A stretch of DNA of 40,386 nucleotides from a virus (taxonomy: Duplodnaviria; Heunggongvirae; Uroviricota; Caudoviricetes): IMG/VR virus record IMGVR_UViG_649989946_000002, one strand, 5' to 3'. The notes under the pieces were generated by a model. That model saw only the letters and a list, made by a program, of their open reading frames with translations, ran no database searches and was not told the DNA's origin. The position numbers and the translations under genes are program-made. Positions within the stretch are counted from its first letter, which is position 1; each line of letters begins with the position of its first letter. Shown one piece after another: positions 6,011 to 38,890 of the stretch.

Positions 6011-6708
6011 TTACTGCGAAAGTTTGTTAATGGAAAGGAAGCCGCCAAAGTTGCCGACGTTATTGCGGAACTTACAACCGCTCAGGCATTTGCTGCATTT
6101 ATCCTTCGTGATATCGGACGTTGGCTGGTCATATTCATCCGCGACCGCCGGACCGTGATAACCGCACTCATCGCCGCGATAGGTCCAGGTGCAGGTGTTG
6201 GCCAGCATGATACGTCCCGGAAAAACAGCGCCGTCCGTTTCCGTCGGCGTGGACAGTACAAAAGAGGCACTCACCGCGCTCAGTTCGCTGCACTGCTCAA
6301 TGCGCCAGCGGCTGATCACCTCCTGCTCCGGATCGGCGTCACTGTTTCCGTTGACGAAGTTCACCGCATCCAGAAAACGGGCGTAAACCTTACGCCGGAC
6401 CACCGTTCCGCCGACCAGACTCTGCAGATCTTCCGCCATCCCGGTGACCATACCGTACAGGTTAGAAACCGTCAGCGTGGGGCGCGTACTGGTGCCTTTG
6501 CCATTCAGTTCAAAACCACTCCCCTGAATGGGATACGGCTGATACTGTCGCCCCTGCCAGGTGACCGGCTCACCTTTTTCGTTCTGCTCATTACAGAAAA
6601 ATAACGTTCTCCACCGACCTCTGTCAGATCGATTTCCCAGAGCACCACGCTGGCAGACTGCTCCGCACGGGTGCATTCATTCAGTGTTTCCTGCCGGATA
6701 TCCTGCAT
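6011..6708 (-). pseudogene. L: Minor tail protein L, reading frame broken by 1-nt deletion in a homopolymer (forward A5 at 6597-6601)
   Basis: ORF 6505..6708 gives MQDIRQETLNECTRAEQSASVVLWEIDLTEVGGERYF then diverges; ORF 6011..6676 carries FFCNEQNEKGEPVTWQGRQ... onward; one extra T would join them into a ~232-aa L. Confidence 0.8.
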
Positions 6709-7037
6709 CAGTTCACCACCTGTTCAAACTCTGCGCTGAACTCAACACGCAGCATACTGACCCGCGACGACCATTTTGCGCAGGTCACCTTTATCTGCCG
6801 CCACTCATAAGGCGGCGTCCACAGAAAGGATTTCCAGCCCCCGTGCTCAGCCAGAAACGACTCAAGCGCCGTGGCCTCCCAACGGGGAACAGAAAGCGTC
6901 ACGCTGTACGTTTTCAGGTCGGCATTCAGCCCGGCAGGCGCTCGCTGGGAATAGCCATCACCAAAGCGCACCTTTCTTACGGAAGGGGCCGAAGCCACAT
7001 CCATACCGGGTTTCACTTTCCAGCGGAAGGTCTTCAT
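6708..7037 (-). CDS. M: Minor tail protein M
   Basis: 109-aa ORF, lambda M length and position (between H and L). Confidence 0.9.
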   Translation of the reverse strand: MKTFRWKVKPGMDVASAPSVRKVRFGDGYSQRAPAGLNADLKTYSVTLSVPRWEATALESFLAEHGGWKSFLWTPPYEWRQIKVTCAKWSSRVSMLRVEFSAEFEQVVN

Positions 7038-9613
7038 CGTCCACCTCCGGAGAACAGACCACCATCGCGCATCTGTGCCTGAATTTCATCACGGGCACCC
7101 TTGCGGGCCATGTCATACACTGCCTTCATCATCTGTGGACCTGGCAGACCATTCGTACCGTCGTTCTGAATCACCACGTGATTGTTCTGATTAAAATTAA
7201 TGCCTTCAGCCCGCCGCATCTGCGCCGGACTTCCGGCACCGCCCACATAACCACCTTCCGCATAGCCCCGCATCAGGCGGTACAGGTTGCCGACACCAAT
7301 TCGGCTGGTTGCCTCCTTCGTGAAGACAAATTCACCACGGTGAACAATCCCCGCTGGCTCATATTTGCCGCCGGTTCCCGTAAATCCTCCGGTTGCAAAA
7401 TGGAATTTCGCCGCAGCGGCCTGAATGGCTGTACCGCCTGATGCGGATGCGCCGCCACCAACAGCCCCGCCAATGGCGCTACCGATACTCCCGACAATCC
7501 CCACCATTGCCTGCTTAAGCAGAATTTCTGTCATCATGGACAGCACGGAACGGGTGAAGCTGCGCCAGTTCTGCTCACTGCCGGTCAGCATCGCCGCCAT
7601 ATTCTGCGCAATACCATCAAAGGTCTGCGTGGCTGCACTTTTAACCTGCGACATACTGTCCGTGGCGCTCTCTTCCCACTCACTCCAGCCGGACCTGAGG
7701 CCTGCCATCCAGCTCCCGCGAAGCTGGTCTTCAGCCGCCCAGGTCTTTTTCTGCTCTGACATGACGTTATTCAGCGCCAGCGAATTATCGCCATACTGTT
7801 CCTTCAGGCGCTGTTCTGTGGCTTCCCGCGCTGCCTGCCGGTCAGTAAGCCCCCGGTTTTTCGCCTCAATGGCTGCCCGTTTTGCCCGTTGTTGCTGTGC
7901 GAACTTATCCGCCTGCTGCGCCAGCGCGTTCAGGCGCTCCTGATACGTAACCTTGTCGCCAAGTGCAGCCAGCTGGCGTTTGTACTCCAGCGTCTCATCT
8001 TTATGCGCCAGCAGGGATTTCTCCTGTGCGGACAGCTGGCGACGTTGCGCCGCCTCCTCCAGTACCGCGAACTGACTCTCCGCCTTCCACAAATCCCGGC
8101 GCTGCTGGCTGATTTTCTCATTTGCTCCGGCATGCTTCTCCAGCGTCCGGAGTTCAGCCTGAAGCGTCAGCAGGGCAGCATGAGCACTGTCTTCCTGACG
8201 ATCGCCCGCAGACACTTTCACGCCGGACTGTTTCGGCTTTTTCAGCGTCGCTTCATAATCCTTTTTCGCCGCCGCCATCAGCGTGTTGTAATCTGCCTGC
8301 AGGATTTTCCCGTCTTTCAGTGCCTTGTTCAGTTCTTCCTGACGGGCAGTATATTTCTCCAGCGGCGTCTGCAGGCGTTCGTAAGCCTTCTGCGCCTCTT
8401 CGGTATATTTCAGCCGTGATGCCTCAGACTCGGCCCAGTCATTTGCTGCCATCTCTCTGGCCTTTTCAAGATCGGCCTGCAACGTGGCGGCTGAAAGCCC
8501 AAGTTGCGCATTCGCTCTGTCCTCCCATGCTCCCCGGAGATTGGCAAGAAATGCTGAGGTTTTACCGCGCCGGTGGCTTCGGCTCTGATACCACTGCCAT
8601 TTTTTGTCCGCCTCATCAAAAGCCTTTTCTGCTTTCTCCAGCATTCCCTGGGCAGTGTCCGGGCGACCAATATCCAGCACCGAATCCCACATGGATTTGA
8701 ATGCCCGTGCTGTCCTGTCTGCCCAGGTCTCCAGCGTGCCCATGTTCTCTTTCAGGCGGCGGGTCTGGTCATCAAACCCTTTCGTTGCGGCCTCGTTCGC
8801 CGCCTGCAATGCCCCGGCTTCATCTCCGGAACGCTGCAACTGAGCAACATACGCAATCTGCTCCGCCGTCACGTTATGGAACTGACGTGCCATCGCTGTC
8901 AGTCCCGACGTCGGGTCTGTGGTCAGCTTCCCGAAGGCTTCAGCGACCTTGTCCACCTCCACGCCGGATGCAGAGGAGAAACGCGCCACACTCTGGCTGA
9001 TCGCCTCAAACTGCTCACCACCACGCACACCGGCATTCACCAGCGCCGTCAGTGACTCGCTGGTCTGGTTAAACGTCAGCCCTGCCGCCTGCCCGGCTCT
9101 GGACAGGGCCAGAATACGATCTGCCGTCAGTCCCGCCTGATTGCCGGAAAGGACCAGCGTTTTGTTGAAATCGGACAGGGTTGAGTTGCCCTGATACCAG
9201 GCATACGCCAGCGCACCGGTCGCCACCGCCAGCGAGGTGGCCCCCACCATCGGCAGGGTGATCGCACCGGCAAGCCCCCTGAACATGGGGATCATCCCGC
9301 CGAAGGAGTCCTTAACCTGACCACCCTGTTGCAGCAGGATCAGCCACGGACTTTGCCCGCCTGCAAGCTGCGTGGCCACGTCGGTGAACTGTGCAGGCAG
9401 CATACGCATGGCGGCTTTATACTGCCCGACGGAAATCCCCGCTTTCTGTGCAGCCAGCGCCTGTCGGCTCAGCGACTGTTCAACGACTGCCGCTGTTTTT
9501 TTCGCATCAGTTTCCGTACCGGAAAAATGACGCCTGACTCTGGCCATCTGCTCGTCAAATCTGGCCGCATCCAGACTTAAATCAACGACCAGATCGCCTA
9601 CCGGTTCAGCCAT
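7034..9613 (-). CDS. H: Tail tape-measure protein H
   Basis: 859-aa ORF, MAEPVGDLVVDLSLDAARFDEQMARVRRHFSG..., long coiled-coil middle, C-terminal ...RDGGLFSGGGR as in lambda H. Confidence 0.95.
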   Translation of the reverse strand: MAEPVGDLVVDLSLDAARFDEQMARVRRHFSGTETDAKKTAAVVEQSLSRQALAAQKAGISVGQYKAAMRMLPAQFTDVATQLAGGQSPWLILLQQGGQVKDSFGGMIPMFRGLAGAITLPMVGATSLAVATGALAYAWYQGNSTLSDFNKTLVLSGNQAGLTADRILALSRAGQAAGLTFNQTSESLTALVNAGVRGGEQFEAISQSVARFSSASGVEVDKVAEAFGKLTTDPTSGLTAMARQFHNVTAEQIAYVAQLQRSGDEAGALQAANEAATKGFDDQTRRLKENMGTLETWADRTARAFKSMWDSVLDIGRPDTAQGMLEKAEKAFDEADKKWQWYQSRSHRRGKTSAFLANLRGAWEDRANAQLGLSAATLQADLEKAREMAANDWAESEASRLKYTEEAQKAYERLQTPLEKYTARQEELNKALKDGKILQADYNTLMAAAKKDYEATLKKPKQSGVKVSAGDRQEDSAHAALLTLQAELRTLEKHAGANEKISQQRRDLWKAESQFAVLEEAAQRRQLSAQEKSLLAHKDETLEYKRQLAALGDKVTYQERLNALAQQADKFAQQQRAKRAAIEAKNRGLTDRQAAREATEQRLKEQYGDNSLALNNVMSEQKKTWAAEDQLRGSWMAGLRSGWSEWEESATDSMSQVKSAATQTFDGIAQNMAAMLTGSEQNWRSFTRSVLSMMTEILLKQAMVGIVGSIGSAIGGAVGGGASASGGTAIQAAAAKFHFATGGFTGTGGKYEPAGIVHRGEFVFTKEATSRIGVGNLYRLMRGYAEGGYVGGAGSPAQMRRAEGINFNQNNHVVIQNDGTNGLPGPQMMKAVYDMARKGARDEIQAQMRDGGLFSGGGR

Positions 9614-10040
9614 ACCGGACTCCTCCTGCGATCCCTTCTGATACTGTCATCAGCATTACGTCATCCTCCGTCATGTCCGCCACATCCGGGGAAGCGGGGA
9701 TAACTTCATTCCCGTCCGGGCCAAAACGAACGCCTCCGGCAAGCCCTGCCGCTTTCTGCATCAGCACATCATCTTCAGTCTCTTCGTCAGCCTCGCGCCG
9801 GTTCAGCAGACTGAAATCCAGCGGATGCATATCCGGATCGCTGAAAAACAGGCTGAGCACGGTGTACGTCAGCCCGGAAAAGTGCATATCCAGCAGAACA
9901 TCATGAAAATAATGGGTACTGTAAAAGCGGTGCCAGTCGGCATACTCCGTGGATGACATCCCGGCAAGCATGGCACGCCAGTCGGGTCGCCCCATCTCGC
10001 GCGCCAGTTTCAGGGCAAAACTCAGCTCACCGTCGAACAC
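9606..10040 (-). CDS. T: Tail assembly chaperone T segment (expressed as G-T fusion by programmed -1 frameshift)
   Basis: 144-aa ORF in -1 frame relative to G, beginning FDGELSFALKLA directly after the GGGAAAG slippery heptamer. Confidence 0.85.
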   Translation of the reverse strand: MFDGELSFALKLAREMGRPDWRAMLAGMSSTEYADWHRFYSTHYFHDVLLDMHFSGLTYTVLSLFFSDPDMHPLDFSLLNRREADEETEDDVLMQKAAGLAGGVRFGPDGNEVIPASPDVADMTEDDVMLMTVSEGIAGGVRYG

Positions 10041-10444
10041 TTTCCCGCAGAAACAGGCTCTGCAGGCCCGGCGTCCTCTGCCTGTTCAGGGGCATCATTC
10101 ACCACAAACTCATACATACCGGACAGCCGGTACACCACGTTTTCAGCATGAGAAATTGCCTCTGTAGGCCAGGTGGTAAGCACTTCCTGCTCAATCTGTT
10201 TAACGGCTTCATTCATGGAAGGCATCTGCGTCTTCTGCGGATGGTTATGCCACAGGGACATCGCCACCACACAAGCACCGGTTCTGATGGCGTCTTCCAC
10301 AGTAAACTTCCGGTTGCTGTCTGACTCCGCCTGTTCTGCCTGCCGTTTCATCAGGGCGAGATGCTCAATACGCTGCAGGGCTGACAGTTCAGAAAGCGTG
10401 ACGGTCACACCGTTATGTTCAAATGATTCGGTTTTCAGGAACAT
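10022..10444 (-). CDS. G: Tail assembly chaperone G
   Basis: 140-aa ORF MFLKTESFEHNGVTVTLSELSALQRIEHLALMKRQAEQ... ends ...AGKCSTVS; matches lambda G as recalled. Confidence 0.9.
   Translation of the reverse strand: MFLKTESFEHNGVTVTLSELSALQRIEHLALMKRQAEQAESDSNRKFTVEDAIRTGACVVAMSLWHNHPQKTQMPSMNEAVKQIEQEVLTTWPTEAISHAENVVYRLSGMYEFVVNDAPEQAEDAGPAEPVSAGKCSTVS
10040..10046 (-). promoter_or_regulatory. Programmed -1 ribosomal frameshift slippery site G GGA AAG (G to G-T)
   Basis: Minus-strand heptamer GGGAAAG across codons A-G-K near the 3' end of G; the T frame opens immediately after. Confidence 0.8.
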
Positions 10445-10459
10445 CGCTGACTCTCCGGA

Positions 10460-11200
10460 TTAACTGGCGGTGACGTTGATTTCTGCAACCGCAGCAAGTT
10501 CACCATTACCGGATACGACCGGAATGTTGACCTTGCCTGCAGCAACACCTTTCACGGTGATGGTCATACCACTGACCGACACGGTGGCTTTTGTTTTATC
10601 CGCTGACACCGCACGGAAGCTCTTGTCGGTTGCGCCTTCCGGCTGGAATGCCACGGTCAGCGTGGTGCTCTGCCCTTTCACCACCGAGGTGCTGGCAGGC
10701 GTCACGGTCATGCCGGTTGCTGCTGTGACCGTGCTGCGATCTTCTGCCATCGACGGACGGCCCACATTGGTGACCTTCACCGTGCGGGTGATCACTTCCT
10801 TCGCCGTCACCGCCTTACCGATACTGCTGACCCAGCCGCGGAACACATCGACCGTGCCATTCGGGAAGCGGATTTTATAGGCTCGGGTATCCCCTTCATT
10901 AAACCACGCCAGCAGCGCCTGCTGCCCCTGCTCTCCGGGCATCCACGCCAGCGTGAAGCTGGTATCTCCGGCAGATTTCTGCCCCTGCCCGGTCGCAGTC
11001 CAGTCCGCATCTTCATCATCGAGATAGCTGTCGTCATAGGACTCAGCGGTCAGTTCGCCGGGCGTCAGGTCTTTAACTTTAGCCAGACGCGACCAGTCAA
11101 CGTCTGAAAGCGGGTTCGCATAAGGGTCACCGTTCCCCTTATAAACCCACAGTGTGGTCCCGGCCCCTTTCACCGGCATTACTGGATTTGGTACAGGCAT
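10460..11200 (-). CDS. V: Major tail tube protein V (with C-terminal Ig-like domain)
   Basis: ORF 10460..11230; likely start [22 protein letters not shown] at 11200 (246 aa). Confidence 0.9.
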
Positions 11201-11207
11201 AGCGTCC

Positions 11208-11603
11208 TCACATTTCATAGGTAATGACATAAGTCAGATCGGCTGAACTCCACAGGCCCGCATCATCGTCGCGCCGGTAGTCATAGCCGCTGGCCACCAT
11301 ACTGGTGATCAAATCTGACAGTGCCGGGATATCGCTCATCACCGGATAAATCCGGGACTCCATCCACGAATCCAGCTCTGAATCCGGCACCTGAGCAGGC
11401 AGGAAAACTTCAATATGCAGCTCCGCCTGCCAGGTATCGCTGTCCAGCTCTTCGCCCGTGTATTCAGCGCCGGTGAGATAAACGGCAATTGCCGGAAAAT
11501 CCGCCTCATCAAAAACAGCGGGGCGACCATCAAAAAGCGTCGCCCCGGTGTCATGCTTCTCCAGTGCATCCAGTACGGCTGCACGGAGTTCAGTATGTTT
11601 CAT
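11208..11603 (-). CDS. U: Tail terminator protein U
   Basis: 131-aa ORF, lambda U length and position between Z and V. Confidence 0.9.
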
Positions 11604-12177
11604 CGCTTTATTACCATTCTCAGTTGATGCTGCAGCGCATAGCCCAGCTCTTTCGGAAGACGTTCACGCCGTATCCGTTCAATATTCTGTTTAAACGCCG
11701 TGGTCAGCGGCACCGCCATCGGGATTTTCACCACATCAATGGGGTAACGGTTTTTCCCGGCCACACGCTGCATGACATGCCACCGGCCATTTTTCAGTTG
11801 CTGAATAAACGCGCCGGGAATACGACGGTTTCCCACCACAAGCACGCTGCCGCCACCTTTCAGGGCTGAACGCTGCCCCTTTTTACGACGTCTGCGGCGG
11901 GAAAGGACAACCCGCGCGTTACCCAGCCTGATTACGGGCAAATCCCCCGGTTAACCCTGATTCTGGCCTGCGGATTTTTGACCGTGGCCCTTTTCAGCCT
12001 GGCCCTTTCCTTTACCAGTTTCCGGCGTACCTTTGTCTCACGGGCAACCTGTGCCACCGACTGCGATATCGCGGATGAAGCAACGCGGTTAATGGCCATT
12101 GCGGCGGCACCGGGCACCGCCGTTCTGCTGATACGGCTGAGGTTTTCAACGGCCTGCTCAAGACCTTTTATGGCCAT
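11600..12177 (-). pseudogene. Z: Tail completion protein Z, frame broken by 1-nt indel at a G5 run (forward C5 at 11944-11948)
   Basis: ORF 11932..12177 gives MAIKGLEQAVENLSRIS...ARIRVNRGICP*, ORF 11600..11941 gives (L)PVIRLGNARVVLSRRRRRKKGQ...; together 192 aa as in lambda Z. Confidence 0.8.
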
Positions 12178-12188
12178 ACATCCCCCTT

Positions 12189-12542
12189 TCAGCGGCGACG
12201 GTTAACGGCAGGCGGTACGCCCCGCCCAAGCCAGAGATGACAGCTTCCGCCATCATCCGGCGAAATCCGGTCTATCCAGAAGTTTTCCTCACCGATGGTC
12301 AGCGTGTCGCCGCGCCGCAGCTGCCGCACATCATCAGTCTGGACAAACAGGGACGGGCTGGAGCCTTCAACGCGCACGCCCTGTCCGGCATAGCTGATAT
12401 TTTCAGGGTCATCAAAAACACCACGTATCACAGCACCGGACTGCTCACCGGATGTCATGGTGGCTGACGTTCCCATGTACCCGCGTATCGTTTCATCGGC
12501 GCAGGCAATGGCAGCATCGAACAGGTTATCGAAATCAGCCAC
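12189..12542 (-). CDS. FII: Head-tail connector protein FII
   Basis: 117-aa ORF, lambda FII length and position. Confidence 0.9.
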   Translation of the reverse strand: MADFDNLFDAAIACADETIRGYMGTSATMTSGEQSGAVIRGVFDDPENISYAGQGVRVEGSSPSLFVQTDDVRQLRRGDTLTIGEENFWIDRISPDDGGSCHLWLGRGVPPAVNRRR

Positions 12543-12553
12543 AGCGCCTCCCG

Positions 12554-12949
12554 TTATTGCATTCTGGCCAGGCCGCGCTCTGTCATTTCAGCTGCCACAC
12601 CGGCAGAGACACGGAACGCCGTTCCCGGCAGCACAAATGCCACAGCCTCATCCCGCGTGGCGTGAAGTGCATCAGTATGCAGCGTCACCAGTGCCACAAC
12701 CGTGACCAGATCAGCCGTATCAGTCACGGTATCCGGCTGCGCTGATACAACCTCATTTTCATGTCCGGTCAGCACATTTTCCGGGCTGAGAGGGGTATCC
12801 TGACCGGCAGTGTCGCCCGTGTCATCAAGCTCTTCTTCCAGCTCTGCCACACGGAGCGCCAGTTCTTCTTTCGTCCCCGTCAGGCTGATATCACGGTTCA
12901 GTTGTTCACCCAGCGAGCGGAGACGGGCAATCAGTTCATCTTTCGTCAT
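12554..12949 (-). CDS. FI: DNA-packaging accessory protein FI
   Basis: ORF 12554..12988; start taken at MTKDELIARLRSLGEQLNRD (132 aa) as in lambda FI. Confidence 0.85.
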   Translation of the reverse strand: MTKDELIARLRSLGEQLNRDISLTGTKEELALRVAELEEELDDTGDTAGQDTPLSPENVLTGHENEVVSAQPDTVTDTADLVTVVALVTLHTDALHATRDEAVAFVLPGTAFRVSAGVAAEMTERGLARMQ

Positions 12950-12990
12950 GGACTCCTCCACAGAGAAACAATGGCCCCGAAGGGCCATGA

Positions 12991-14016
12991 TTACGCCAGT
13001 TGAACGGACACGAACTCATCAGGATCAGCCAGCAGCATCAGCGGTGCTGACTGAATCATGGTGAACTCTCGCGCCGGATCGCCGGATGTCTTCCAGTTTT
13101 TCGGATAACGGGGAGACGCATTAATACCCTCACTCAATGCATCCGCATCCTGAATACAGCCATAGGTGCGCAGACCGCGTGCATGAGTGTTACCCAGCAC
13201 CATCGTGTCGTCCGGCAGGAAGTTCTTTTTGACGCCGTTTTCCACGTACTGTCCGGAATACACGACGATGGCCACATCGCCATACATCCCCTTATAGGAC
13301 ACCGCTTTACCCAGGTCTTTCACCGCTGTCTCCAGCTCGGAATGAGAGCCGCGACGGGTATCCAGCTTCTCCTTGACGGCTTTGAAGGAACGGAACAGCG
13401 CCCAGCCTTTCGGATCAAACACGATGATATTCACCACGCCGCTGGCGTTCAGCGCGTAGGCTTCGATATCGTCGGTCGGGTCATACGTGGACTTGTCACG
13501 CTTGCTCCACTCCGTGCCGCCGGACTGCGTGATGTTGTTCGCCGCACTGCGGCCCATATCCACCTCAACCGGATCGAAGGCTTCACCGGTCATGGTGTAT
13601 TTGCCCTTGAGCACGGCAGAAACTGCCTGCATCTCTTCGACCTGAGCAATGGCCAGCTCTTCGTCACGCATGTTCTGCAGGATGATGCGACGGCGGCGGT
13701 AAGCCGGGTCCGCCAGATTCTGCGGATCTTCATCCGGCAGGCGATGCAGGGTCATCTGCGGATTCACTTCATGCTTGGGTTTGACATATCCCGGCGTAAA
13801 TTCAGAGGTGGAGCCGCCACGGGAACGGATAACCTCACCGGAAACAATCGGCGAAACGTACAGCGCCATGTTTACCAGTCCCGGAATTTGTGAGAGATAG
13901 ACTTTCTCCGTAGTGAAGGGATAGCTCTCACGGAAAAAGAGACGCAGAAACAGCGGATCAAACTTAAATTTCTGCTCATTTGCCGCCAGCAGCTGGGCGG
14001 TTGTGTACATCGACAT
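12991..14016 (-). CDS. E: Major capsid protein E
   Basis: ORF contains MSMYTTAQLLAANEQKFKFDPLFLRLFFRESYPF...; 341 aa from the MSMYT start. Confidence 0.95.
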   Translation of the reverse strand: MSMYTTAQLLAANEQKFKFDPLFLRLFFRESYPFTTEKVYLSQIPGLVNMALYVSPIVSGEVIRSRGGSTSEFTPGYVKPKHEVNPQMTLHRLPDEDPQNLADPAYRRRRIILQNMRDEELAIAQVEEMQAVSAVLKGKYTMTGEAFDPVEVDMGRSAANNITQSGGTEWSKRDKSTYDPTDDIEAYALNASGVVNIIVFDPKGWALFRSFKAVKEKLDTRRGSHSELETAVKDLGKAVSYKGMYGDVAIVVYSGQYVENGVKKNFLPDDTMVLGNTHARGLRTYGCIQDADALSEGINASPRYPKNWKTSGDPAREFTMIQSAPLMLLADPDEFVSVQLA

Positions 14017-14071
14017 AAAAAAATCCCGTAAAAAAAGCCGCACAGGCGGCCTTTAGTGATGAAGGGTAAAG

Positions 14072-14404
14072 TTAAACGATGCTGATTGCCGTTCCGGCAA
14101 ACGCGGTCCGTTTTTTCGTCTCGTCGCTGGCAGCCTCCGGCCAGAGCACATCCTCATAACGGAACGTGCCGGACTTGTAGAACGTCAGCGTGGTGCTGGT
14201 CTGGTCAGCATCAACCGCCAGAATGCCAACGGCAGCACCGTCGGTGGTGCCATCCCACGCAACCAGCTTACGGGTGGAGGTATCCAGCATCAGCGGGGTC
14301 ATTGCAGGCGCTTTCGCACTCAATCCGCCGGGCGCGGTTGCCGTATGTGCCGGGTCACTGTTGCCCAGCGGCTGGTAATGGGTAAAGGTTTCTTTGCTCG
14401 TCAT
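14072..14404 (-). CDS. D: Head decoration protein D
   Basis: [39 protein letters not shown]..., 110 aa from MTSKE. Confidence 0.9.
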
Positions 14405-14413
14405 AAACATCCC

Positions 14414-15019
14414 TTACACTGGTGTGTTCAGCAAATCGTTAACGGCATCAGATGCCGGGTTACCTGCAGCCAGCGGTGCCGGTGCCCCCTGCATCAGACG
14501 ATCCAGCGCAGTGTCACTGCGCGCCTGTGCACTCTGTGGTGCAGCTGCCAGAATGCGGCGGGCCGTTTCCACGGTCATACCGGGGGTTTCGGCCAGCACG
14601 CGGGCCTGTTCTTCGCGTCCGTGAGCCTCCTCACAGTTGAGGATCCCCATAATGCGGCTGTTTTCTGCCGCAACCGCAGCGGTGATCTGCGCGTTCACGT
14701 CCGGCTGCGCCGCGCTGGCGTTTTCGCCCTCCGTCGCTGGCACCACGTCAGTAACGTCAGTCTGCGAAGCAGTGGCTGAAACAGTTGTTGATTGAGTCTC
14801 TTTGGTCATTCGCCCTCCTGAGAGACGGGATTTACGCGCATCCAGTGCATCACGCATGACGGTGATCGCATCGGTGCTGTTAACAAGTTCATCAGCCAGT
14901 CCGGCATCAATGGCCTCCTGACCGCTGTACACTGCAGCCTCGGTATCCAGCACAGCCTGCACAGACAGGCCGGTATATGCCGACACCTTCTGTGCAAACA
15001 TCTGGCGGGTTGCGTCCAT
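14414..15019 (-). CDS. Nu3: Scaffolding protein Nu3 (in-frame C-terminal 201 codons of C)
   Basis: Internal Met MDATRQMFAQ... 201 codons before the C stop, as in lambda where nu3 shares the 3' end of C. Confidence 0.65.
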   Translation of the reverse strand: MDATRQMFAQKVSAYTGLSVQAVLDTEAAVYSGQEAIDAGLADELVNSTDAITVMRDALDARKSRLSGGRMTKETQSTTVSATASQTDVTDVVPATEGENASAAQPDVNAQITAAVAAENSRIMGILNCEEAHGREEQARVLAETPGMTVETARRILAAAPQSAQARSDTALDRLMQGAPAPLAAGNPASDAVNDLLNTPV

Positions 15020-15713
15020 CCGGGACTGCAGTGTCTCCCGGACGTCATCCGGAAGATGGCTGTAGGGATTGCCATCCACCTTATGGCTGCCGCTGTAAAT
15101 CAGCGTGATTTCCACACCCTGTTTCTCCAGGGCAGCACCGTAATTACTGTGAGCCATCATGACGCCGATGGAGCCTGTCCGGGCGGTCTGCGTGACCAGA
15201 CGCCGGGAGGCGGCACTGGCAAGCAGCTGACCTGCACTGCAGTTCATGTCGTTGGCCAGCGCCCATACCGGTTTTATGTCACGCACACGGGCGATGATGT
15301 CAGCGCAGTCAAATGCCCCCGCCACCATTCCGCCTGGCGTGTCCATATCGAGCAGAATGCCGTCCACCATCGGGTCGCTGGCAGCCTGTTGCAGACGGGC
15401 GATAATGCCGTTGTAACCGGTCATCCCCGAGTACGGCTGCAGCGCCCGCGTCCGGCTGACCAGCGTGCCGGACACCGGCAGCACGGCGATGCCGTTCATG
15501 ACCTGATAACTGCGGGCCTGTCGTGGTCCGTCATCATCACCGGATAACGCCAGCGTCGCGAGTGCCTCCTGGGCAGTCAGGCTGTCGCCGGACACCGCAT
15601 CCGTCAGGCGGCTGATCCCAAGCTGGCCTGCAAGCGCACAAAAGAAAACCCGCGCATAGGCGGGTTCAAGCATCAGCGGCTCATTAAAAGCCATACTGGC
15701 AATATGCGGGAGA

Positions 15714-15733
<20 letters not shown>
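14414..15733 (-). CDS. C: Head maturation protease / scaffold C (GTG start)
   Basis: 439 aa from GTG at 15733 (VTAELRNLPHIASMAFNEPLMLEPAYARVFF...), matching lambda C as recalled. Confidence 0.9.
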
Positions 15734-19414
<3,681 letters not shown>

Positions 19415-19440
<26 letters not shown>

Positions 19441-19960
19441 TCAGCAACCCCGGTATCAGTTCATCCAGCGCGGCTGCTTTGTTCATGGCTTTGATGATAT
19501 CCCGTTTCAGGAAATCAACATGTCGGTTTTCCAGTTCCGGAAAACGCCGCTGCACCGACAGGGGGATCCCGTCGAGAATACTGGCAATTTCACCTGCGAT
19601 CCGCGACAGCACGAAAGTACAGAATGCGGTTTCCACCACTTCAGTGGAGTCTCTGGCATTTTTCAGCTCCTGTGCGTCGGCCTGCGCACGCGTAAGTCGA
19701 TGGCGTTCGTACTCAATAGTCCCTGGCTGGAGATCTGTCTCGCTGGCCTGCCGCAGTTCTTCAACTTCCCGGCGCAGCTTTTCGTTCTCAATTTCAGCAT
19801 CCCTTTCGGCATACCATCTTATAACGGCGGCAGAGTCATAAAGCACCTCATTACCCTTGCCACCGCCTCGCAGAACGGGCATTCCCTGTTCCTGCCAGTT
19901 CTGAATGGTACGGATACTCGCACCGAAAATGTCAGCCAGCTGCTTTTTGTTGACTTCCAT
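19415..19960 (-). CDS. Nu1: Terminase small subunit Nu1
   Basis: 181-aa ORF MEVNKKQLADIFGASIRTIQNWQEQGMPVLRGGGKGNEVLYDSAAVI... (winged HTH). Confidence 0.95.
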
Positions 19961-20137
19961 TGTTCATTCCACGGCCAAAAACAGAGAAAGGAAACGACAG
20001 AGGCCCAAAAGCTCGTTTTCAGCACCTGTCGTTTCCTTTCTTTTCAGGGGGTATTTTAAATAAAAACATTAAGTTACGACGAAGAAGAACGGAAATGCCT
20101 TAAACCGGAAAATTTTCATAAATAGCGAAAACCCGCG

Positions 20138-20149
20138 AGGTCGCCGCCC
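20138..20149. other. cos site: 12-nt cohesive-end sequence (cosN core); cosB lies between here and Nu1
   Basis: Forward AGGTCGCCGCCC is the reverse complement of the lambda cohesive end GGGCGGCGACCT; flanked by CGCGGGTTTTCGCTATTTATGAAAATTTTCCGGTTTAAGGC in reverse complement. Confidence 0.85.
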
Positions 20150-20348
20150 CGTAACCTGTCGGATCGCCGGAAAGGACCCGCAAAATGATAATAATTATCA
20201 TCTACATGTCACAACGTGCATCTACGCCATCAAACCACGTCAAATAATCAATTATGACGCAGGTATCGTATTAATTGATCTGCATCAACTTAACGTAAAA
20301 ACAACTTCAGACAATACAAATCAGCGACACTGAATACAGGGCAACCTC

Positions 20349-20543
20349 ATGTCAACGAAGAACAGAACCCGCAGAACAACAACCCGCAACATCCGCTTTC
20401 CTAACCAAATGATTGAACAAATTAACATCGCTCTTGATCAAAAAGGGTCCGGGAATTTCTCAGCCTGGGTCATTGAAGCCTGCCGCCGGAGACTAACGTC
20501 AGAAAAGAGAGCATATACATCAATCCAGAGTGATGATGGATGA
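20349..20543 (+). CDS. YnfO/YlcI-like small protein (DUF3950 family)
   Basis: 64-aa ORF MSTKNRTRRTTTRNIRFPNQMIEQINIALDQKGSGNFSAWVIEACRRRL...; position just inside cos as in lambda/Qin right ends. Confidence 0.75.
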   Translation: MSTKNRTRRTTTRNIRFPNQMIEQINIALDQKGSGNFSAWVIEACRRRLTSEKRAYTSIQSDDG

Positions 20544-20928
20544 ACATCCCGGTTTCTTGACCTTCCCTCCCTCCCCGCACAGAACTGGCGAGCGTGAGGG
20601 ACCAATATGTGAGCCATAAATGCCTTATCTTCAGAAATGTAGTTGGTATCCGAATAGAACGATATTGTAAATTCACCTAAATACGAGGCATTGCTGTAGT
20701 TGAATTGCAGTACTGTATTAGCCTGACAGTGACAGAATACGATATTGACTCTGTCACTTGTGAAATGGTCAGAATGGTTAGCAGTTATGGTGATCAGTCA
20801 ACCACCAGGGAATAATCCTTCGTATTCTTATCGTGCTTTACTAACGCGGCCTCAATTGCCCTGTGATCTTACCCAGCAATAGTGGACACGCGGCTAAGTG
20901 AGTAAACTCTCAGTCAGAGGTGACTCAC

Positions 20929-21228
20929 ATGACAAAAACAGTATCAACCAGTAAAAAACCCCGTAAACAGCATTCGCCTGAATTTCGCAGTGAAGCCCTG
21001 AAGCTTGCTGAACGCATCGGTGTTACTGCCGCAGCCCGTGAACTCAGCCTGTATGAATCACAACTCTACAACTGGCGCAGTAAACAGCAAAATCAGCAGA
21101 CGTCTTCTGAACGTGAACTGGAGATGTCTACCGAGATTGCACGTCTCAAACGCCAGCTGGCAGAACGGGATGAAGAGCTGGCTATCCTCCAAAAGGCCGC
21201 GACATACTTCGCGAAGCGCCTGAAATGA
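20929..21228 (+). CDS. insE: IS3 OrfA (InsE-like, HTH/leucine zipper)
   Basis: [54 protein letters not shown]... Confidence 0.9.
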
Positions 21229-22091
21229 AGTATGTCTTTATTGAAAAACATCAGGCTGAGTTCAGCATCAAAGCAATGTGCCGCGTGCTCCGGGTGGCCC
21301 GCAGCGGCTGGTATACGTGGTGTCAGCGGCGGACAAGGATAAGCACGCGTCAGCAGTTCCGCCAACACTGCGACAGCGTTGTCCTCGCGGCTTTTACCCG
21401 GTCAAAACAGCGTTACGGTGCCCCACGCCTGACGGATGAACTGCGTGCTCAGGGTTACCCCTTTAACGTAAAAACCGTGGCGGCAAGCCTGCGCCGTCAG
21501 GGACTGAGGGCAAAGGCCTCCCGGAAGTTCAGCCCGGTCAGCTACCGCGCACACGGCCTGCCTGTGTCAGAAAATCTGTTGGAGCAGGATTTTTACGCCA
21601 GTGGCCCGAACCAGAAGTGGGCAGGAGACATCACGTACTTACGTACAGATGAAGGCTGGCTGTATCTGGCAGTGGTCATTGACCTGTGGTCACGTGCCGT
21701 TATTGGCTGGTCAATGTCGCCACGCATGACGGCGCAACTGGCCTGCGATGCCCTGCAGATGGCGCTGTGGCGGCGTAAGAGGCCCCGGAACGTTATCGTT
21801 CACACGGACCGTGGAGGCCAGTACTGTTCAGCAGATTATCAGGCGCAACTGAAGCGGCATAATCTGCGTGGAAGTATGAGCGCAAAAGGTTGCTGCTACG
21901 ATAATGCCTGCGTGGAAAGCTTCTTTCATTCGCTGAAAGTGGAATGTATCCATGGAGAACACTTTATCAGCCGGGAAATAATGCGGGCAACGGTGTTTAA
22001 TTATATCGAATGTGATTACAATCGGTGGCGGCGGCACAGTTGGTGTGGCGGCCTCAGTCCGGAACAATTTGAAAACAAGAACCTCGCTTAG
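21225..22091 (+). CDS. insF: IS3 OrfB (InsF-like DDE transposase; made as OrfAB by -1 frameshift)
   Basis: 288-aa ORF overlapping orfA in the -1 frame; DDE integrase-core motifs (WAGDITYL..., HTDRGGQY..., [17 protein letters not shown]). Confidence 0.9.
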
Positions 22092-22556
22092 GCCTGTGTC
22101 CATATTACGTGGGTAGGATCACTGAATGCTTCCAGAGATACTTGATGTTCTATACATGCAATTACAACATCCGGGTAACCCATCGAAATGGTGCTATTAA
22201 GCATAGTTTTTACACGAACCTGCTCCTGGGAGGGGGCATCAATGTATTGATCTTTATGCATTTTGTCGCTCCATTCGTTTGCTCTTCACTTGCGGCTAAA
22301 AATATAACGTCAAATCACTCAGCATGAAAGAGTGAAAGTTTCAGCGCGTTTCCCTTACATAATCTGTCGTTTGTATTCTCTTCAGGCATACCGGAAAGAC
22401 TAGGTATTGTCACACAACCAATACCATCGACAATCGAGATTTATATCTATTCGGTAATGTTTAAATATAACAAAACCCCGTAAAAACGAGGTTTATGGGT
22501 AATTTGTATTGTTGAATAGCATCTGATGAGAAATTGATGCTAATACTATAAACATA

Positions 22557-22733
22557 CTAGATTAAATCAATCTTGATATCATAGCTTTCAAGACCAGTCA
22601 TTTTTTCCCGTGCAGTAAACTGGATACTGGTAACTTCTTTCCCGGTCTTTTTCTTAAGCTCAATGATTTTTTTTGTTATATATTCAGAAATATCTGCTTC
22701 TGTTTTTGTTTTTAACTCTTCAATGTTCATCAT
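22557..22733 (-). CDS. gnsB: GnsB-like small protein (GnsA/GnsB family)
   Basis: MMNIEELKTKTEADISEYITKKIIELKKKTGKEVTSIQFTAREKMTGLESYDIKIDLI with AGAGGA RBS. Confidence 0.75.
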   Translation of the reverse strand: MMNIEELKTKTEADISEYITKKIIELKKKTGKEVTSIQFTAREKMTGLESYDIKIDLI

Positions 22734-22902
22734 TTCCTCTTTTAGTCTGTTATGACTTTCTTGGTACACAGTAGTGTCAATTATATGGAGCAAACGTATA
22801 AAAGATAAGATGAAACATCGCAATAATCAACATACGACGGTCTAAATTTCACACAAACAGATAAAGATGATTATCATTTATTATCAATGCATTAGAATCA
22901 AA

Positions 22903-23058
22903 TCAATTCAAGAGTCTCATTGCTGCTTCCAGAATTTCTTCTGAAGTTACATGTCGATCCGCTGCTACATAAATGACTTTATGATCTCCGGTCAGAGATG
23001 GAAACCCTGCAGCCATTACAGTGAGGTGTGTTGTTTCGCCATTTGGGTATTCACGCAT
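22903..23058 (-). CDS. ynfN: YnfN-like small protein (51 aa)
   Basis: MREYPNGETTHLTVMAAGFPSLTGDHKVIYVAADRHVTSEEILEAAMRLLN; position between gnsB and cspI as in Qin; start inferred. Confidence 0.5.
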   Translation of the reverse strand: MREYPNGETTHLTVMAAGFPSLTGDHKVIYVAADRHVTSEEILEAAMRLLN

Positions 23059-23173
23059 GATGGTGTTAACTCCGGTCATCACTGGCACTACCATTGCTGG
23101 TTCAGAGTTAAAAAAACTATTATTTTTTCATATGTTACCGTAATATGTGAGTATCCATCGACTAGACACTAAG

Positions 23174-23196
23174 CAAAAAAGCTCCCGAAGGAGCCT
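23174..23196 (-). terminator. Rho-independent terminator downstream of cspI
   Basis: Minus strand GGCTCC-TTCG-GGAGC followed by TTTTTTGC. Confidence 0.5.
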
Positions 23197-23401
23197 TCAT
23201 TTTCACTTTCTTAAATCTAACGACAGATGGCTAACATTTAAGTATTGTGAAATATTATCAAATGTAATCATCATTGATTTACAAAAGATACATTTTGCCC
23301 CGAAAGGATTTCTGTCAGAAACATCAAAAGATGATGTTCTATACTGAGAACCATGGCAACACGGGCATCTAAAGTGAATATGGTTTGTAATATTTTCTAC
23401 C

Positions 23402-23614
23402 TCAAAGTGCCACTACATGAACAGCTGCAGGGCCTTTAGGTCCGTTCTCAATACCAAATTCGACTTCCTGATTCTCAGTTAACGTTTTGAAATCGTTGCT
23501 CTGAATAGCTGAGAAATGCACAAACACATCTTTGCTACCATCTTTCGGCGTGATGAAACCAAAACCTTTTTCAGGGTTAAACCATTTCACTAAACCAGTC
23601 ATTTTGTTAGACAT
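23402..23614 (-). CDS. cspI: Cold-shock protein, CspI-like
   Basis: 70-aa [41 protein letters not shown]... with RNP1/RNP2 motifs. Confidence 0.9.
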
Positions 23615-23977
23615 TATTATTACCTTTTGAAGAAGTTAGCCCTTGGGCAGAATGGTCCGAAAAAAAATATCAGAGAGAAAAACCAACAAGGAAATCTCAA
23701 GAGGTACAAATAATAAAATTATAACAATGACTGCTTCAGATAATTTTGTAACAAACCAGAACACCATTAACGCATGATTAACCAACCATAGCAAGGATTA
23801 CTTTTGTAAAGAAAAACACACGAATGAAACAATAGCTTTATTTATTAATAAAACGTGTCATTCTGTCTAATGACCTTTTATCTTACCCTTAAGATTTCAA
23901 GGATTTTGACTCATGGAAGAGTCCTTTTTATTTAAATTTCACATTCAGCGCTAAAAATAATCCGATTTAATATTAAT

Positions 23978-24470
<493 letters not shown>

Positions 24471-24474
<4 letters not shown>

Positions 24475-25004
24475 TGTTCTATCCCCCAGCAGGTTAATGC
24501 ACTCTCCTGGTCACGACGAATAACCTGACCGTAACAATTATTTGAACGAATGCGGCAATCACGTCCACCGTCCTTTATCCACCAGCGAATCGCCTCGCAT
24601 GCGCCTTTACGATCACCGGCATTAAGCCGCTTATAAAACGTCGACGGAAAACACTTACCAGGGCCAATGTTATAGGGACAGAATGACGCGATACCGGCTT
24701 TCTGTGGCTCGGTCAGTGGAACTTTTATATTGCGCTCCACCCATGCCAGCGCCTTATCCCGCTCAATGGCGTTAACCTGGGCGCATTTTTCCTTCGACAG
24801 CTTCATTTCCGGTATGACGGGCTTACCATCCACCATTGTGGCACCACGACAGATGGTCCATATACCGGAACCATCGCGGTATGCCGTAGTGTGGTTACCT
24901 TCTTTTTCATCCAAAAACTGGTCGAGAATATCAGGCGCAGGCGCACCGACGGCAATCAGTGCCAGAACAGCAGCCGACAGGCCGTATCTGATTTTAGTAT
25001 TCAT
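24471..25004 (-). CDS. SAR endolysin (lysozyme with signal-arrest-release N-terminus), RrrQ/R21-like
   Basis: 177-aa ORF MNTKIRYGLSAAVLALIAVGAPAPDILDQFLDEKEGNHTTAYRDGSGIWTICRGAT... (T4-lysozyme-like catalytic E-8aa-D-5aa-T region after a weakly hydrophobic SAR helix). Confidence 0.9.
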
Positions 25005-25059
25005 GGATATTTATCAGGATGCTACCAATGAAAGATACTGGAAAGCCAACTGCAAAAAG

Positions 25060-25374
25060 CTAACAACCCGTAATCGAGTTATCTGAACTGTTAATTTTTA
25101 TGGTATACCGAGCCTCTGAACAGGGTCGCGTTTCTGGCAACAGCTCGTCCCCTTCACATAACCCGGCAGCAACATCCAGGAAGACCTGTCTGATGCTCCT
25201 TCTGGCTGCTGCCTCATAAAACTCCAGCGCGGCACCTTCAACATGGTCCAGCGAGATGTCCAGGTCAAAAATTTCACCGTCAAAGCGTTCTTTGTCCTGT
25301 AAGGCTACAGTTACCGTAACTTTATTCTCAAAATTACGGACTCCTTTCACAACCAGTTCATAGTCTTGAGTCAT
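25060..25374 (-). CDS. YdfR-like protein (DUF1327), sited between holin and endolysin
   Basis: 104-aa ORF MTQDYELVVKGVRNFENKVTVTVALQDKERFDGEIFDLDISLDHVEGAALEFYEAAARR... Confidence 0.7.
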   Translation of the reverse strand: MTQDYELVVKGVRNFENKVTVTVALQDKERFDGEIFDLDISLDHVEGAALEFYEAAARRSIRQVFLDVAAGLCEGDELLPETRPCSEARYTIKINSSDNSITGC

Positions 25375-25378
25375 TGGA

Positions 25379-25594
25379 TTACTCTCCTCTCGCAGCCTTA
25401 CGCCTGTCTTCTTTAATCTTGAAATAAAGATTTGTCAGATACGTCAGCAGGCCAAAAACCAGGCTACCCAGCACACCGATTGCAGCCCACTGTGACGGAG
25501 TTACTTTATCGAGTAACTGCAATGCCCAGAAACCAGCATTACCCGCCGATGTGCCATAGGCAACACCTGTTGTTAACTTATCCATTGATTTCAT
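25379..25594 (-). CDS. Phage-21-type pinholin (S21/EssQ-like) with dual-start motif MKSM
   Basis: [71 protein letters not shown]; two TM segments, charged C-terminus; ORF track extends it to 25669. Confidence 0.85.
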
Positions 25595-25810
25595 ATCCTC
25601 ACCCCGATGTACACGGATGGTGCAATATGTTTGAAAAGATCGGAGTCTACGGGGTAGTTTTGACAGCACACGTTGTTCTCAACGGCGCTAAAAAAACATA
25701 CACATTAAAAATGTGGGTAATTATTTTGAAAGAAAGTCATATATAAAATAATAATACGAGAAATGTTTTCATATTTAGTGTACTGTATACGGCCATTTAT
25801 ACAGGAAAAG

Positions 25811-25984: not shown

Positions 25985-26041
25985 TTGATTTTATTAGTAA
26001 CAAGTATTTTTTATATTTTAATAATATATTTAAAGCAGATA

Positions 26042-26563: not shown

Positions 26564-26862
26564 TCTACATTCCTTAACTTGAGCCTTTCGGCATAAATGG
26601 TTTGCATAACAGAAACGACTTCGTACTTAATTGGAGAGACTCAAAGAAGGAATAAGTGAATAACACCTGAAATGAGAACTGCTTTAGTAAACTACTTCGT
26701 ATATCGTCTGTTCTTCAAACCGACGCAATCATTAACGCATAGTTGAACATATGAAGCAATGTTTATTTTAGACATCCAGCCGTCTTCAACCCCATCAAAA
26801 AACTATAGCTTTCTTCAGGAACGTGTGTATAGTGCGCCAAGTTATCAGTATTAAGGAATTTT

Positions 26863-27075
26863 TTGTCCCGTAAAATGACAGGAATTGTCAAAACCTTTGA
26901 CGGCAAAAGCGGCAAGGGTCTTATCACCCCATCCGATGGTCGTATCGATGTCCAGCTTCATGTTTCAGCGCTCAATCTCCGCGATGCAGAAGAAATTACC
27001 ACCGGATTACGCGTGGAATTTTGCCGGATAAATGGTCTGCGTGGCCCTTCAGCTGCCAATGTTTACCTTTCATGA
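26863..27075 (+). CDS. cspF: Cold-shock-domain protein, CspF-like (divergent)
   Basis: 70-aa [73 protein letters not shown]. Confidence 0.85.
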
Positions 27076-27405: not shown

Positions 27406-27605
27406 CGTCGGGTATACAAAGCCCATCGTTGAAAAATTTTATCCATATTTTTTGAAAAATGCAAACATCATGTCGCCATCTTCAGCAAAAATCATTTATC
27501 TCGTCACCTTCCTCAATTGCGCTTCCGCGTATGCTTCTTCCTGCCAGCACTTTGTTACCAGTTTACCAATGACGTCCGCATACCCCTTATACCACTGATA
27601 ATCGG

Positions 27606-28277
27606 TCAGGTCTGGTACCAGCTTCTGGACATGACGTCGTGCCAGCGTGGTCGGTAAACGACTAAACCGGTTTCCATTACAACGCCCACAAATCTTATAT
27701 ACCGGTACGCCATGAAACCGGGTTCTTTTTCATCCAGAACAATCCCTTTACCCTTACACCCTCTGCACGCTGTGCTGGCTTCGCCCTTACCATGGCAATG
27801 CTGACATAGTTCCTTCACCCATTCTTCCTTGATTACAGATTCCCCGCGTCTGTAGTGTTTCACCACTTCGCGCAATACATTATAAAATCCCGTACCTGAA
27901 CAATGCTCACAGCGAGCCTTACTTGCCGCAGACCTGGAGTAATCAGCAAAGGCAAAACTCACGAGGTAAGGAATAATCTGTAACCGGATTTCTTCACTCA
28001 ATTTGTTCAATGTCGGGTTATCCAGTGCCATCGCGTAATTTAGCAGGCCTTCAATCGCAAACTGAGGGTCCTGAACACCAACTTTTGCCAGAAATAAGGC
28101 CAACCCAAGTGGTGCTTTCGACTGCACCATCCCCTGCGCTGCCATTACATCCGTAATTGTTAAACAACCGGTGCCTGTCGCTGGAGCGTCATCGCTCAAT
28201 TTTGGAGATTTTGGGGAGTAATATTTTGGTAAGGCTTCAAGGTTCATGCTCGTTCTCCACTTACGCCAGTACGCCAA
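27606..28277 (-). CDS. Late-gene antiterminator Q (QuuQ/phage-82-type, zinc-binding)
   Basis: 223-aa ORF with CxxC...CxxC cluster (CEHCSGTG...CQHCHGKGEASTACRGCKGKG); position between nin-like genes and lysis cassette. Confidence 0.75.
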   Translation of the reverse strand: MAYWRKWRTSMNLEALPKYYSPKSPKLSDDAPATGTGCLTITDVMAAQGMVQSKAPLGLALFLAKVGVQDPQFAIEGLLNYAMALDNPTLNKLSEEIRLQIIPYLVSFAFADYSRSAASKARCEHCSGTGFYNVLREVVKHYRRGESVIKEEWVKELCQHCHGKGEASTACRGCKGKGIVLDEKEPGFMAYRYIRFVGVVMETGLVVYRPRWHDVMSRSWYQT

Positions 28278-29097: not shown

Positions 29098-29348
29098 CCG
29101 TTCGTTACTAAAAACGGCAGCAATGTTTTGTCTTCCGCCAGCGGCTGGCGAACGGCAGGAACGACTCCGGATGGCAGATTACGCATGCTTTTTGGTTCCG
29201 GTTCCACCAGCACTCGAGGATTATGAAATATCTGTATGGATTCACGGCCCGGCTTAAGGACCACCAGCCCAAGCTCAGGCACCAGAACAGGTCTAAGTAA
29301 TACCCGCACGTTACCTCCAGATCCGTTGCTGGAAAGTGCGGGACGCAC
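29094..29348 (-). CDS. Hypothetical protein (84 aa), possibly the N-terminal part of the DUF968 gene
   Basis: ORF whose stop overlaps the DUF968 ATG; low-complexity sequence, weak support. Confidence 0.3.
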   Translation of the reverse strand: MRPALSSNGSGGNVRVLLRPVLVPELGLVVLKPGRESIQIFHNPRVLVEPEPKSMRNLPSGVVPAVRQPLAEDKTLLPFLVTNG

Positions 29349-31359: not shown

Positions 31360-31385
31360 TAAAGATTTTTTGTGCATGCCGATAG
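31360..31385 (+). promoter_or_regulatory. Sigma-28 (FliA)-type promoter upstream of flxA
   Basis: TAAAGATT-N10-GCCGATAG resembles the TAAAGTTT-N11-GCCGATAA consensus, about 25 nt upstream of the flxA ATG. Confidence 0.6.
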
Positions 31386-31408: not shown

Positions 31409-31726
31409 ATGTCTGTCACAATTCAGGGAAATACCTCAACCGTTATTTCAAACAACTCCGCCCCGGAAGGAACATCAGAAATAGCCAAAATCACAAGACA
31501 AATTCAGGTGCTGACTGAAAAGCTTGGGAAAATCTCATCGGAAGAGGGGATGACGACACAGCAGAAAAAAGAAATGGCTGCATTGGTACAGAAGCAAATT
31601 GAAAGCCTCAGGGCTCAACTGGAGCAGTTGTTAAGGCAGCAGGCAGAGAAAAAGAATAAAGACGCGACAGTTCAGCCTGATAAAAAGAAGAGAAAAAGAC
31701 GATACAAATACCGCTGGCACCATTGA
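31409..31726 (+). CDS. flxA: FlxA-like protein
   Basis: 105-aa ORF MSVTIQGNTSTVISNNSAPEGTSEIAKITRQIQVLTEKLGKISSEEGMTTQQKKEMAALVQKQIESL... with basic C-terminal tail. Confidence 0.8.
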   Translation: MSVTIQGNTSTVISNNSAPEGTSEIAKITRQIQVLTEKLGKISSEEGMTTQQKKEMAALVQKQIESLRAQLEQLLRQQAEKKNKDATVQPDKKKRKRRYKYRWHH

Positions 31727-37915: not shown

Positions 37916-38890
37916 ATGAGTAAAGTCTTTATTTGCGCCGCTATTCCTGACGAACTGGCAACAAGGGAAGAAGGCGCTGTGGCTGTAGCCACAGCCATTG
38001 AAGCTGGCGACGAACGCCGTGCTCGAGCAAAATTTCACTGGCAATTCCTGGAACATTATCCGGCTGCTCAGGACTGCGCTTATAAATTTATTGTCTGCGA
38101 GGATAAACCTGGCATACCCCGCCCTGCCCTCGATTCATGGGATGCTGAATATATGCAGGAAAACCGCTGGGATGAGGAGTCTGCTTCTTTTGTCCCGGTT
38201 GAGACTGAATCCGATCCGATGAACGTCACTTTTGACAAGCTGGCCCCTGAAGTACAGAACGCTGTCATGGTTAAGTTCGACACATGTGAAAACATCACCG
38301 TTGATATGGTTATTAGCGCACAGGAATTGTTGCAGGAAGACATGGCAACATTCGACGGACATATCGTTGAAGCGTTGATGAAAATGCCAGAAGTTAACGC
38401 CATGTATCCGGAGCTTAAGTTGCACGCCATTGGGTGGGTTAAGCATAAATGTATTCCTGGTGCTAAATGGCCCGAAATTCAGGCAGAGATGCGCATCTGG
38501 AAAAAACGTCGCGAAGGTGAACGCAAGGAAACCGGAAAATACACGTCTGTTGTTGATCTCGCCCGCGCCAGAGCCAATCAACAGTACACTGAAAATTCAA
38601 CAGGAAAAATCAGCCCGGTCATTGCTGCCATTCATCGCGAATACAAGCAGACATGGAAAACACTGGATGACGAACTGGCCTACGCTCTCTGGCCTAGTGA
38701 TGTGGATGCCGGAAACATTGACGGCAGCATCCATCGCTGGGCAAAAAAGAAGTTATCGACAACGACCGCGAAGACTGGAAGCGTATCTCGGCATCAATGC
38801 GCAAACAGCCTGATGCCCTTCGCTACGACCGCCAAACTATTTTTGGCCTTGTCCGTGAGCGTCCGATCGACATTCACAAAGATCCCGTAG
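37916..38890 (+). CDS. YdfE-like protein, N-terminal part of a large leftward-operon protein (frame break at 38743-38748)
   Basis: MSKVFICAAIPDELATREEGAVAVATAIEAGDERRARAKF...; GAGG RBS; sequence after ...SIHRWAKK looks out of frame. Confidence 0.6.
   Translation: MSKVFICAAIPDELATREEGAVAVATAIEAGDERRARAKFHWQFLEHYPAAQDCAYKFIVCEDKPGIPRPALDSWDAEYMQENRWDEESASFVPVETESDPMNVTFDKLAPEVQNAVMVKFDTCENITVDMVISAQELLQEDMATFDGHIVEALMKMPEVNAMYPELKLHAIGWVKHKCIPGAKWPEIQAEMRIWKKRREGERKETGKYTSVVDLARARANQQYTENSTGKISPVIAAIHREYKQTWKTLDDELAYALWPSDVDAGNIDGSIHRWAKKKLSTTTAKTGSVSRHQCANSLMPFATTAKLFLALSVSVRSTFTKIP

Follow-up and report, generated by a model that had tools for sequence, protein, structure and literature searches.

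An interrupted tail completion gene and a probable homopolymer error

Deletion of the lambda tail completion gene Z gives normal-looking virions of much lower infectivity, with the DNA end apparently misinserted into the tail (PMC11784142), and the gene product, gpZ, has been found in virions by mass spectrometry but is unresolved in the structure (PMC10721106). Miscounted homopolymers are described as the commonest error of pyrosequencing assemblies (PMC2847712), and homopolymer miscalls have been voiced as a concern elsewhere (PMC4746626).

The window analysed here, the whole stretch of 40,386 nucleotides, is a Qin-type E. coli prophage at the rspB/ydfJ locus whose head and tail genes form a complete lambda-like module. 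It is part of contig ADUK01000015.1 of the draft assembly GCA_000165655.2, and positions 27916-40386 are identical to that contig. To our knowledge, the Qin prophage of K-12 lacks head and tail structural genes. The late operon lies on the minus strand and includes E (12991-14043), FI (12554-12988), the head-tail joining gene FII (12189-12542), the tail terminator gene U (11208-11603) and V (10460-11230). Z sits between FII and U, and both the order of the open reading frames and the annotation of the two closely related loci of E. coli STEC276 and VG1046-3E9, in which all of the structural genes are annotated as intact, support the synteny E-FI-FII-Z-U-V-G/T-H. The segment FII-Z-U-V-G/T-H is also the gene order of lambda, and the region has 97-98% DNA identity to lambda-group phages. 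As recorded, Z departs from its lambda counterpart in that the gene is one base short at the codons CGG GGG GAT and is divided between two open reading frames.

The cluster contains a programmed frameshift of its own. On the minus strand, the lambda G/GT -1 frameshift site GGGAAAG is preserved at 10046-10040, where G (10022-10444) and T (9606-10040) meet. All relatives share this shift, which depends on a canonical heptamer, whereas about 99% of them lack the shift in Z, for which there is no heptamer and no stimulatory structure.

Structure of the interrupted Z gene

As recorded, Z (lambda-type tail completion, PF06763) occupies 578 nucleotides on the minus strand (11600..12177), against 579 in the intact gene, and an uninterrupted frame of about 192 codons is absent. 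The preliminary description had taken the open reading frames 11932..12177 and 11600..11941 to be the N- and C-terminal halves of one Z protein lying in different frames, and we agree: the coordinates are exact, the frames differ, and the family profile is split across both, with profile positions 1-76 on the N-terminal product and 79-190 on the C-terminal one. The N-terminal fragment of 81 amino acids (11932..12177, minus) comprises residues 1-77 of Z proper and then reads out of frame, adding ICP before it ends at a TAA stop, four codons past the G run. The C-terminal frame (11600..11941, minus), a mechanical open reading frame of 113 codons with a TTG start, corresponds approximately to Z residues 80-192. 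Their translations end in RVNRGICP-stop and begin with (M)PVIRLGNARVV, respectively.

The break had been placed at CGGGGGA, and this run can be read directly from the sequence. The forward CCCCC at 11944-11948 is flanked by T and G, which gives CGGGGGA on the minus strand; the relatives compared have six bases here (C6 forward, G6 minus), and in this wild-type context the codons CGG GGG GAT encode R-G-D. Inserting one C after 11948 restores a 579-nucleotide frame of 192 codons whose product contains VNRGDLPVI, as had been proposed, and this product is identical at 192/192 positions to WP_016245263.1, the intact 'phage tail protein' of STEC276 and VG1046-3E9. The PF06763 (Minor_tail_Z) profile covers the repaired protein along its full length (1-190/190, E = 1.5e-81). 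Because the repair and the profile coverage fit one another, we conclude that this is a single-base frameshift inside one Z gene and not a chance pair of open reading frames; the deposited sequence does contain the frameshift. The repaired protein presumably differs from lambda gpZ at six residues.

How the missing base is to be explained is a separate matter. We consider it quite probable that the Z frameshift is a homopolymer under-call in the reads and the consensus of GCA_000165655.2. The true prophage would then carry CGG GGG GAT with six Gs and an intact 192-residue tail completion protein; the read platform would tend to drop one base from long single-letter runs, the consensus would inherit the under-call at a fraction of runs of six or more, and Z would be affected because it happens to hold one of the structural region's few six-base G/C runs.

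Contracted homopolymers elsewhere in the window

The window was compared base by base with the STEC276 and VG1046-3E9 loci over 1-30159 and with the H15 locus over 29101-40386. The preliminary description treated the Z frameshift as an isolated event, and while its diagnosis of the sequence stands, this part does not, since Z is one of about 14 look-alike contractions in the window. Thirteen single-base homopolymer differences could be scored cleanly; all are contractions, all occur in runs of at least six, and there are no expansions.

In the structural region the contraction in Z (C6 to C5, 11944..11948) is accompanied by one in gene L (6011-6708, minus), where A6 has become A5 at 6597..6601 and the frame is shifted after codon 37. 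Repaired L has 232 residues, 230 of which are identical to the VG1046-3E9 protein, and the break is masked by a mechanical 221-residue open reading frame (6011-6676). Two contractions fall at the 5' end of ynfN, A8 to A7 at 23110-23116 and, six nucleotides from that A7 run, T7 to T6 at 23123-23128; a further one frameshifts rzpQ, a lysis gene of the DUF2514 family (T8 to T7, 24389..24395), and another lies just upstream of, and overlaps, the TTG start of cspF (T7 to T6, 26859..26864). In the remaining portion there is an intergenic A6 to A5 at 27432..27436, a T6 to T5 at 27726..27730 that frameshifts the Q-type antiterminator gene ydfT, an A6 to A5 at 29110..29114 that frameshifts ydfU, and a T7 to T6 at 31366..31371 upstream of flxA. 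Inside flxA itself are two A6 to A5 contractions separated by GAAGAG (31682..31697, ending at 31686 and covering 31693-31697). The last (A7 to A6, 38743..38748) splits an 823-residue exonuclease gene into a 324-residue fragment (37916-38890) and a second fragment that extends from 38797 past the window's end. The genes broken by contractions are thus L, Z, ynfN, rzpQ, ydfT, ydfU, flxA and the exonuclease gene. There is also a further, more complex change relative to the relatives at 33157-33160.

The window's contractions are missing from all 14 related loci with which it was compared base by base, and in 5,426 complete genomes there is no gap-free match to the 7.5-kb stretch 22122-29646; because of these two results, the window's deletions are not inherited alleles. 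One candidate for a common real allele was considered and dropped. A 278-residue ydfU fragment appears in 33 blocks of the public collection, but the carriers reach this product by other lesions: of seven compared, six are readable at 29114, and five of these have A6 and one A7.

The frequency of contraction climbs with the length of the run in the reference. There are none among 409 runs of four or 135 runs of five, and the counts then rise to 7/45 for runs of six, 4/10 for seven and 2/4 for eight, that is, from 16% to 50%. Gaps also far outnumber substitutions. Over 22122-29646 (about 7.5 kb) the window differs from VG1046-3E9 by seven gaps and no substitutions, whereas a control comparison of two complete genomes over the same prophage gives 53 substitutions, one single-base gap and one 3-nucleotide gap (7:0 versus 2:53, Fisher p = 7e-8).

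The pattern continues beyond the prophage. The contig extends 8.5 kb past the window through genes for an excisionase and an integrase and the chromosomal genes rspB, rspA, ynfA-E and speG, and comparison of this flank with NCTC9008 shows four contractions (A7 to A6 in xis, A5 to A4 in int, C4 to C3 in rspA and an intergenic A6 to A5) and three substitutions. The control, NCTC9008 against 19SZHZ713Rt, shows eight substitutions and no gaps. Because the flank, including chromosomal rspA, is affected, we attribute the contractions to the assembly and not to decay of the prophage. All 17 scored events, 13 in the window and four in the flank, are contractions (binomial p = 1.5e-5).

These figures bear on the main rival to an under-call, which is a genuine mutation in which replication slippage in G6 dropped one G and truncated gpZ after residue 77. 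On the contig, no fewer than 16 other contractions are indistinguishable from the event in Z, at least five of them are contradicted by a second assembly of the strain, and both the 7:0 ratio of indels to substitutions and the 17 contractions with no expansions fit natural mutation poorly. A mismatch-repair mutator was entertained as a source of many real slippage events and is disfavoured by the same 17:0 bias, by the near-absence of substitutions and by the disagreement between assemblies of one strain. Seventeen contractions with no expansions would be unlike the mutation-accumulation spectra even of mismatch-repair mutators.

The strain may nonetheless carry some genuine frameshifts, as the rspA (C4 to C3) and int (A5 to A4) contractions occur in short runs and are called in both assemblies. 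The rspA frameshift (position 16499 of locus L021, which belongs to contig ADUK01000015.1, beyond the window) shortens the product to 362 residues from 404 and is present in both strain assemblies; as its run is short for an under-call, it could be a real mutation.

A second assembly of the same strain

Contigs of the Logan assembly of SRR040453 cover the window from 6619 to 20891 and from 26871 to about 8.5 kb past its end. Over about 36 kb there are no substitutions between these contigs and the GenBank contig, and there are eight discordant sites, all of them homopolymers. The GenBank contig is the shorter at five (27436, 27730, 31371 and two beyond the window) and the Logan contig at three (14116, 30033 and one integrase site); at all eight the longer call is the one that matches the compared relatives. 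At the first three of these sites the Logan assembly thus has A6, T6 and T7, respectively. Five genes, ydfT, relE, hokD, a CI-like repressor gene and cro, are full-length in the Logan assembly but not in GenBank, and the break in ydfT, which encodes an intact 250-residue product in Logan, is that at 27730. Since assemblies of the same strain disagree only at homopolymers, the run lengths must be ambiguous in the reads, with errors that lean towards contraction.

At Z the two assemblies do not disagree: the run is G5 both in the GenBank contig and in contig SRR040453_82 of the Logan assembly, and this is the first point in favor of a genuine mutation. They also agree at ydfU, at the two sites in flxA, at the exonuclease gene, at int and at rspA. 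Most reads of that sequencing run must therefore favor G5 at Z, as they would also do after a real mutation. The two assemblies probably share reads, however, and for this reason their agreement on G5 is weak evidence.

The resemblance to homopolymer miscalls of flow-based and long-read drafts is otherwise close. The losses occur in long runs and depend on run length, they are contractions only, indels greatly exceed substitutions, coding and non-coding sequences are both affected, and assemblies of one strain disagree with one another. A difference is that both assemblies concur at Z. The platform was probably of the pyrosequencing (454) type, as the era of the accession numbers suggests. We infer that the Z site belongs to the same class of error as the other contractions.

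The Z site in related phages and prophages

With an 801-nucleotide query taken from around Z, matches were obtained in 108 phage records and 3,987 E. coli records; all of the close matches listed from either group span 802 nucleotides, having one extra G. The two best genomes are 99.9% identical to the query and differ from it solely by the G gap. With an 80-nucleotide query across the site we recovered 3,902 places in 3,026 complete genomes, and no complete E. coli genome contains an exact match to the window's 80-mer. A 40-nucleotide query that is able to seed only across G5 found 36 places in 30 of 5,426 complete E. coli genomes. The in-frame G6 form therefore accounts for about 99% of Z homologue places and G5 for about 1% (3,902 versus 36), all of the phage matches listed are in frame, and five and six are the only tract lengths found at the site. 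G5 by descent is not seen in the most closely related prophages, the closest genomes being G6; that no relative has G5 by descent counts against a genuine mutation in this prophage.

This distribution also bears on the possibility of recoding or phase variation, in which full-length Z would be produced from G5 through either a -1 ribosomal slip at CGG GGG or slipped-strand mutation that can revert. The pairing itself is agreeable to such a slip: a -1 P-site slip of tRNA-Gly on C-GGG-GG-A re-pairs perfectly and brings GAU into position as the next codon, so that NRGDLPV is read, and G5 does recur in independent assemblies. However, the frameshift is not conserved, the zero frame AAC CGG GGG AUU is without an X XXY YYZ heptamer, and the 111 nucleotides that span the run and the roughly 90 nucleotides downstream fold no more stably than shuffled sequence (z = -0.05). 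The occurrence of two tract lengths only, in a tract of six nucleotides that is far below known contingency tracts, is similarly unfavorable, and the real programmed frameshift of the cluster, in G/GT, is present and separate from Z. We regard recoding or phase variation as very unlikely and as the least probable of the three explanations.

The G5 allele in other genomes

The exact 81-residue product is encoded on ten contigs of a public collection. In four of the five contigs shown that are not from this strain there are other single-base losses, at places where gpA, portal, E, H or C genes are split; one locus, L008, lies on a clean-looking contig and carries G5 as well. In the 30 complete genomes with G5, for example 2012C-4606 and 13KWH46, the annotation pipeline PGAP marks Z as a 'frameshifted' pseudogene. 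These have the identical G5 at the identical position, differing from the case described here in that they lie in other prophage backgrounds and in that three of them also have a contraction in gpA. The identities of their flanks range from 95 to 100%, and because the prophage backgrounds differ it follows that the G5 alleles of finished genomes arose independently; they may be real or may be residual long-read errors.

This recurrence counts in favor of a real mutation. An identical G5 is found in varied backgrounds and in complete genomes, and in 13KWH46 it is a lone lesion, Z being the only broken gene among 29 neighbours. Together with the clean-looking L008, the 30 finished genomes indicate that real G6 to G5 events may occur at the Z site. 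A control contraction gives a different impression. A T7 to T6 loss in gpA was found in nine complete genomes (a count only, without a denominator), and three of these nine, RM8352, RM8995-C1 and ET220, are also among the genomes with G5 in Z, where about 0.1 would be expected (p ~7e-5). The co-occurrence points to a factor that acts on the whole record, most simply assembly quality, and to nothing specific to Z, and it favors assembly quality over selection on Z.

The gpA run itself, near the 3' end of the terminase large subunit gene (17715-17721), is T7 in the window. It is contracted to T6 in loci L004, L005, L006 and L026, the first two of which do not share the altered gene length of 655 residues, as against 641, seen in L006 and L026.

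A more far-reaching proposal is that the G6 run is a genuine mutational hotspot which time and again, independently, inactivates tail completion in prophages, in about 1% of E. coli Z genes, and could act as a slippage-reversible switch of infectivity; this strain would then be a real instance. We think this very improbable.

Two further considerations favor a genuine mutation. The prophage has already suffered IS insertions, one of IS3 (20864-22121) and one of an element of the ISEsa1 type (32176-33516), and may therefore be decaying; and loss of Z should be tolerable in a lysogen, as lambda with Z deleted makes normal-looking virions of low infectivity (PMC11784142). A rough Bayesian estimate, with contraction at 16% of the six-base runs in this assembly and a prior probability no higher than 0.9% that G5 is real, leaves 6-8% for a real allele, a figure we have widened to about 17% because the error rate at sites where both assemblies agree is uncertain. 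A genuine loss of one G in this strain is thus unlikely in our estimation, and a homopolymer under-call in GCA_000165655.2 is the reading that we prefer.

Were the frameshift real, the tails of this prophage would lack the completion protein and its particles would be poorly infectious, a common fate of resident prophages. With an under-call as the preferred reading the consequences are of another kind, since at least eight genes in the window mimic pseudogenes only through homopolymer contractions, and pseudogene, frameshift or 'defective prophage' calls made from this contig or from similar drafts are to be regarded as unverified.

Insertion sequences and other differences from close relatives

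The IS3-family element at 20864-22121 lies upstream of nu1 and has GAT on both sides (20861-20863 and 22119-22121), a possible 3-bp target duplication. In STEC276 and VG1046-3E9 this element is found at two other sites within about 180 bp, inverted relative to that in the window, which suggests that this short intergenic region has seen either three separate insertions or local rearrangements. The second element is represented by an intact 446-residue transposase gene of the ISEsa1 type (IS1202-like) on the minus strand (32176-33516), in the early region of the prophage; its counterpart in H15 is annotated as partial.

Two single-base insertions relative to both close relatives were also noted, at position 5 (G4 versus G3) and at position 383 (an extra C in CCTCGTG). 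Both are less than 400 nucleotides from the end of the contig, in the tail-fibre/lom region.
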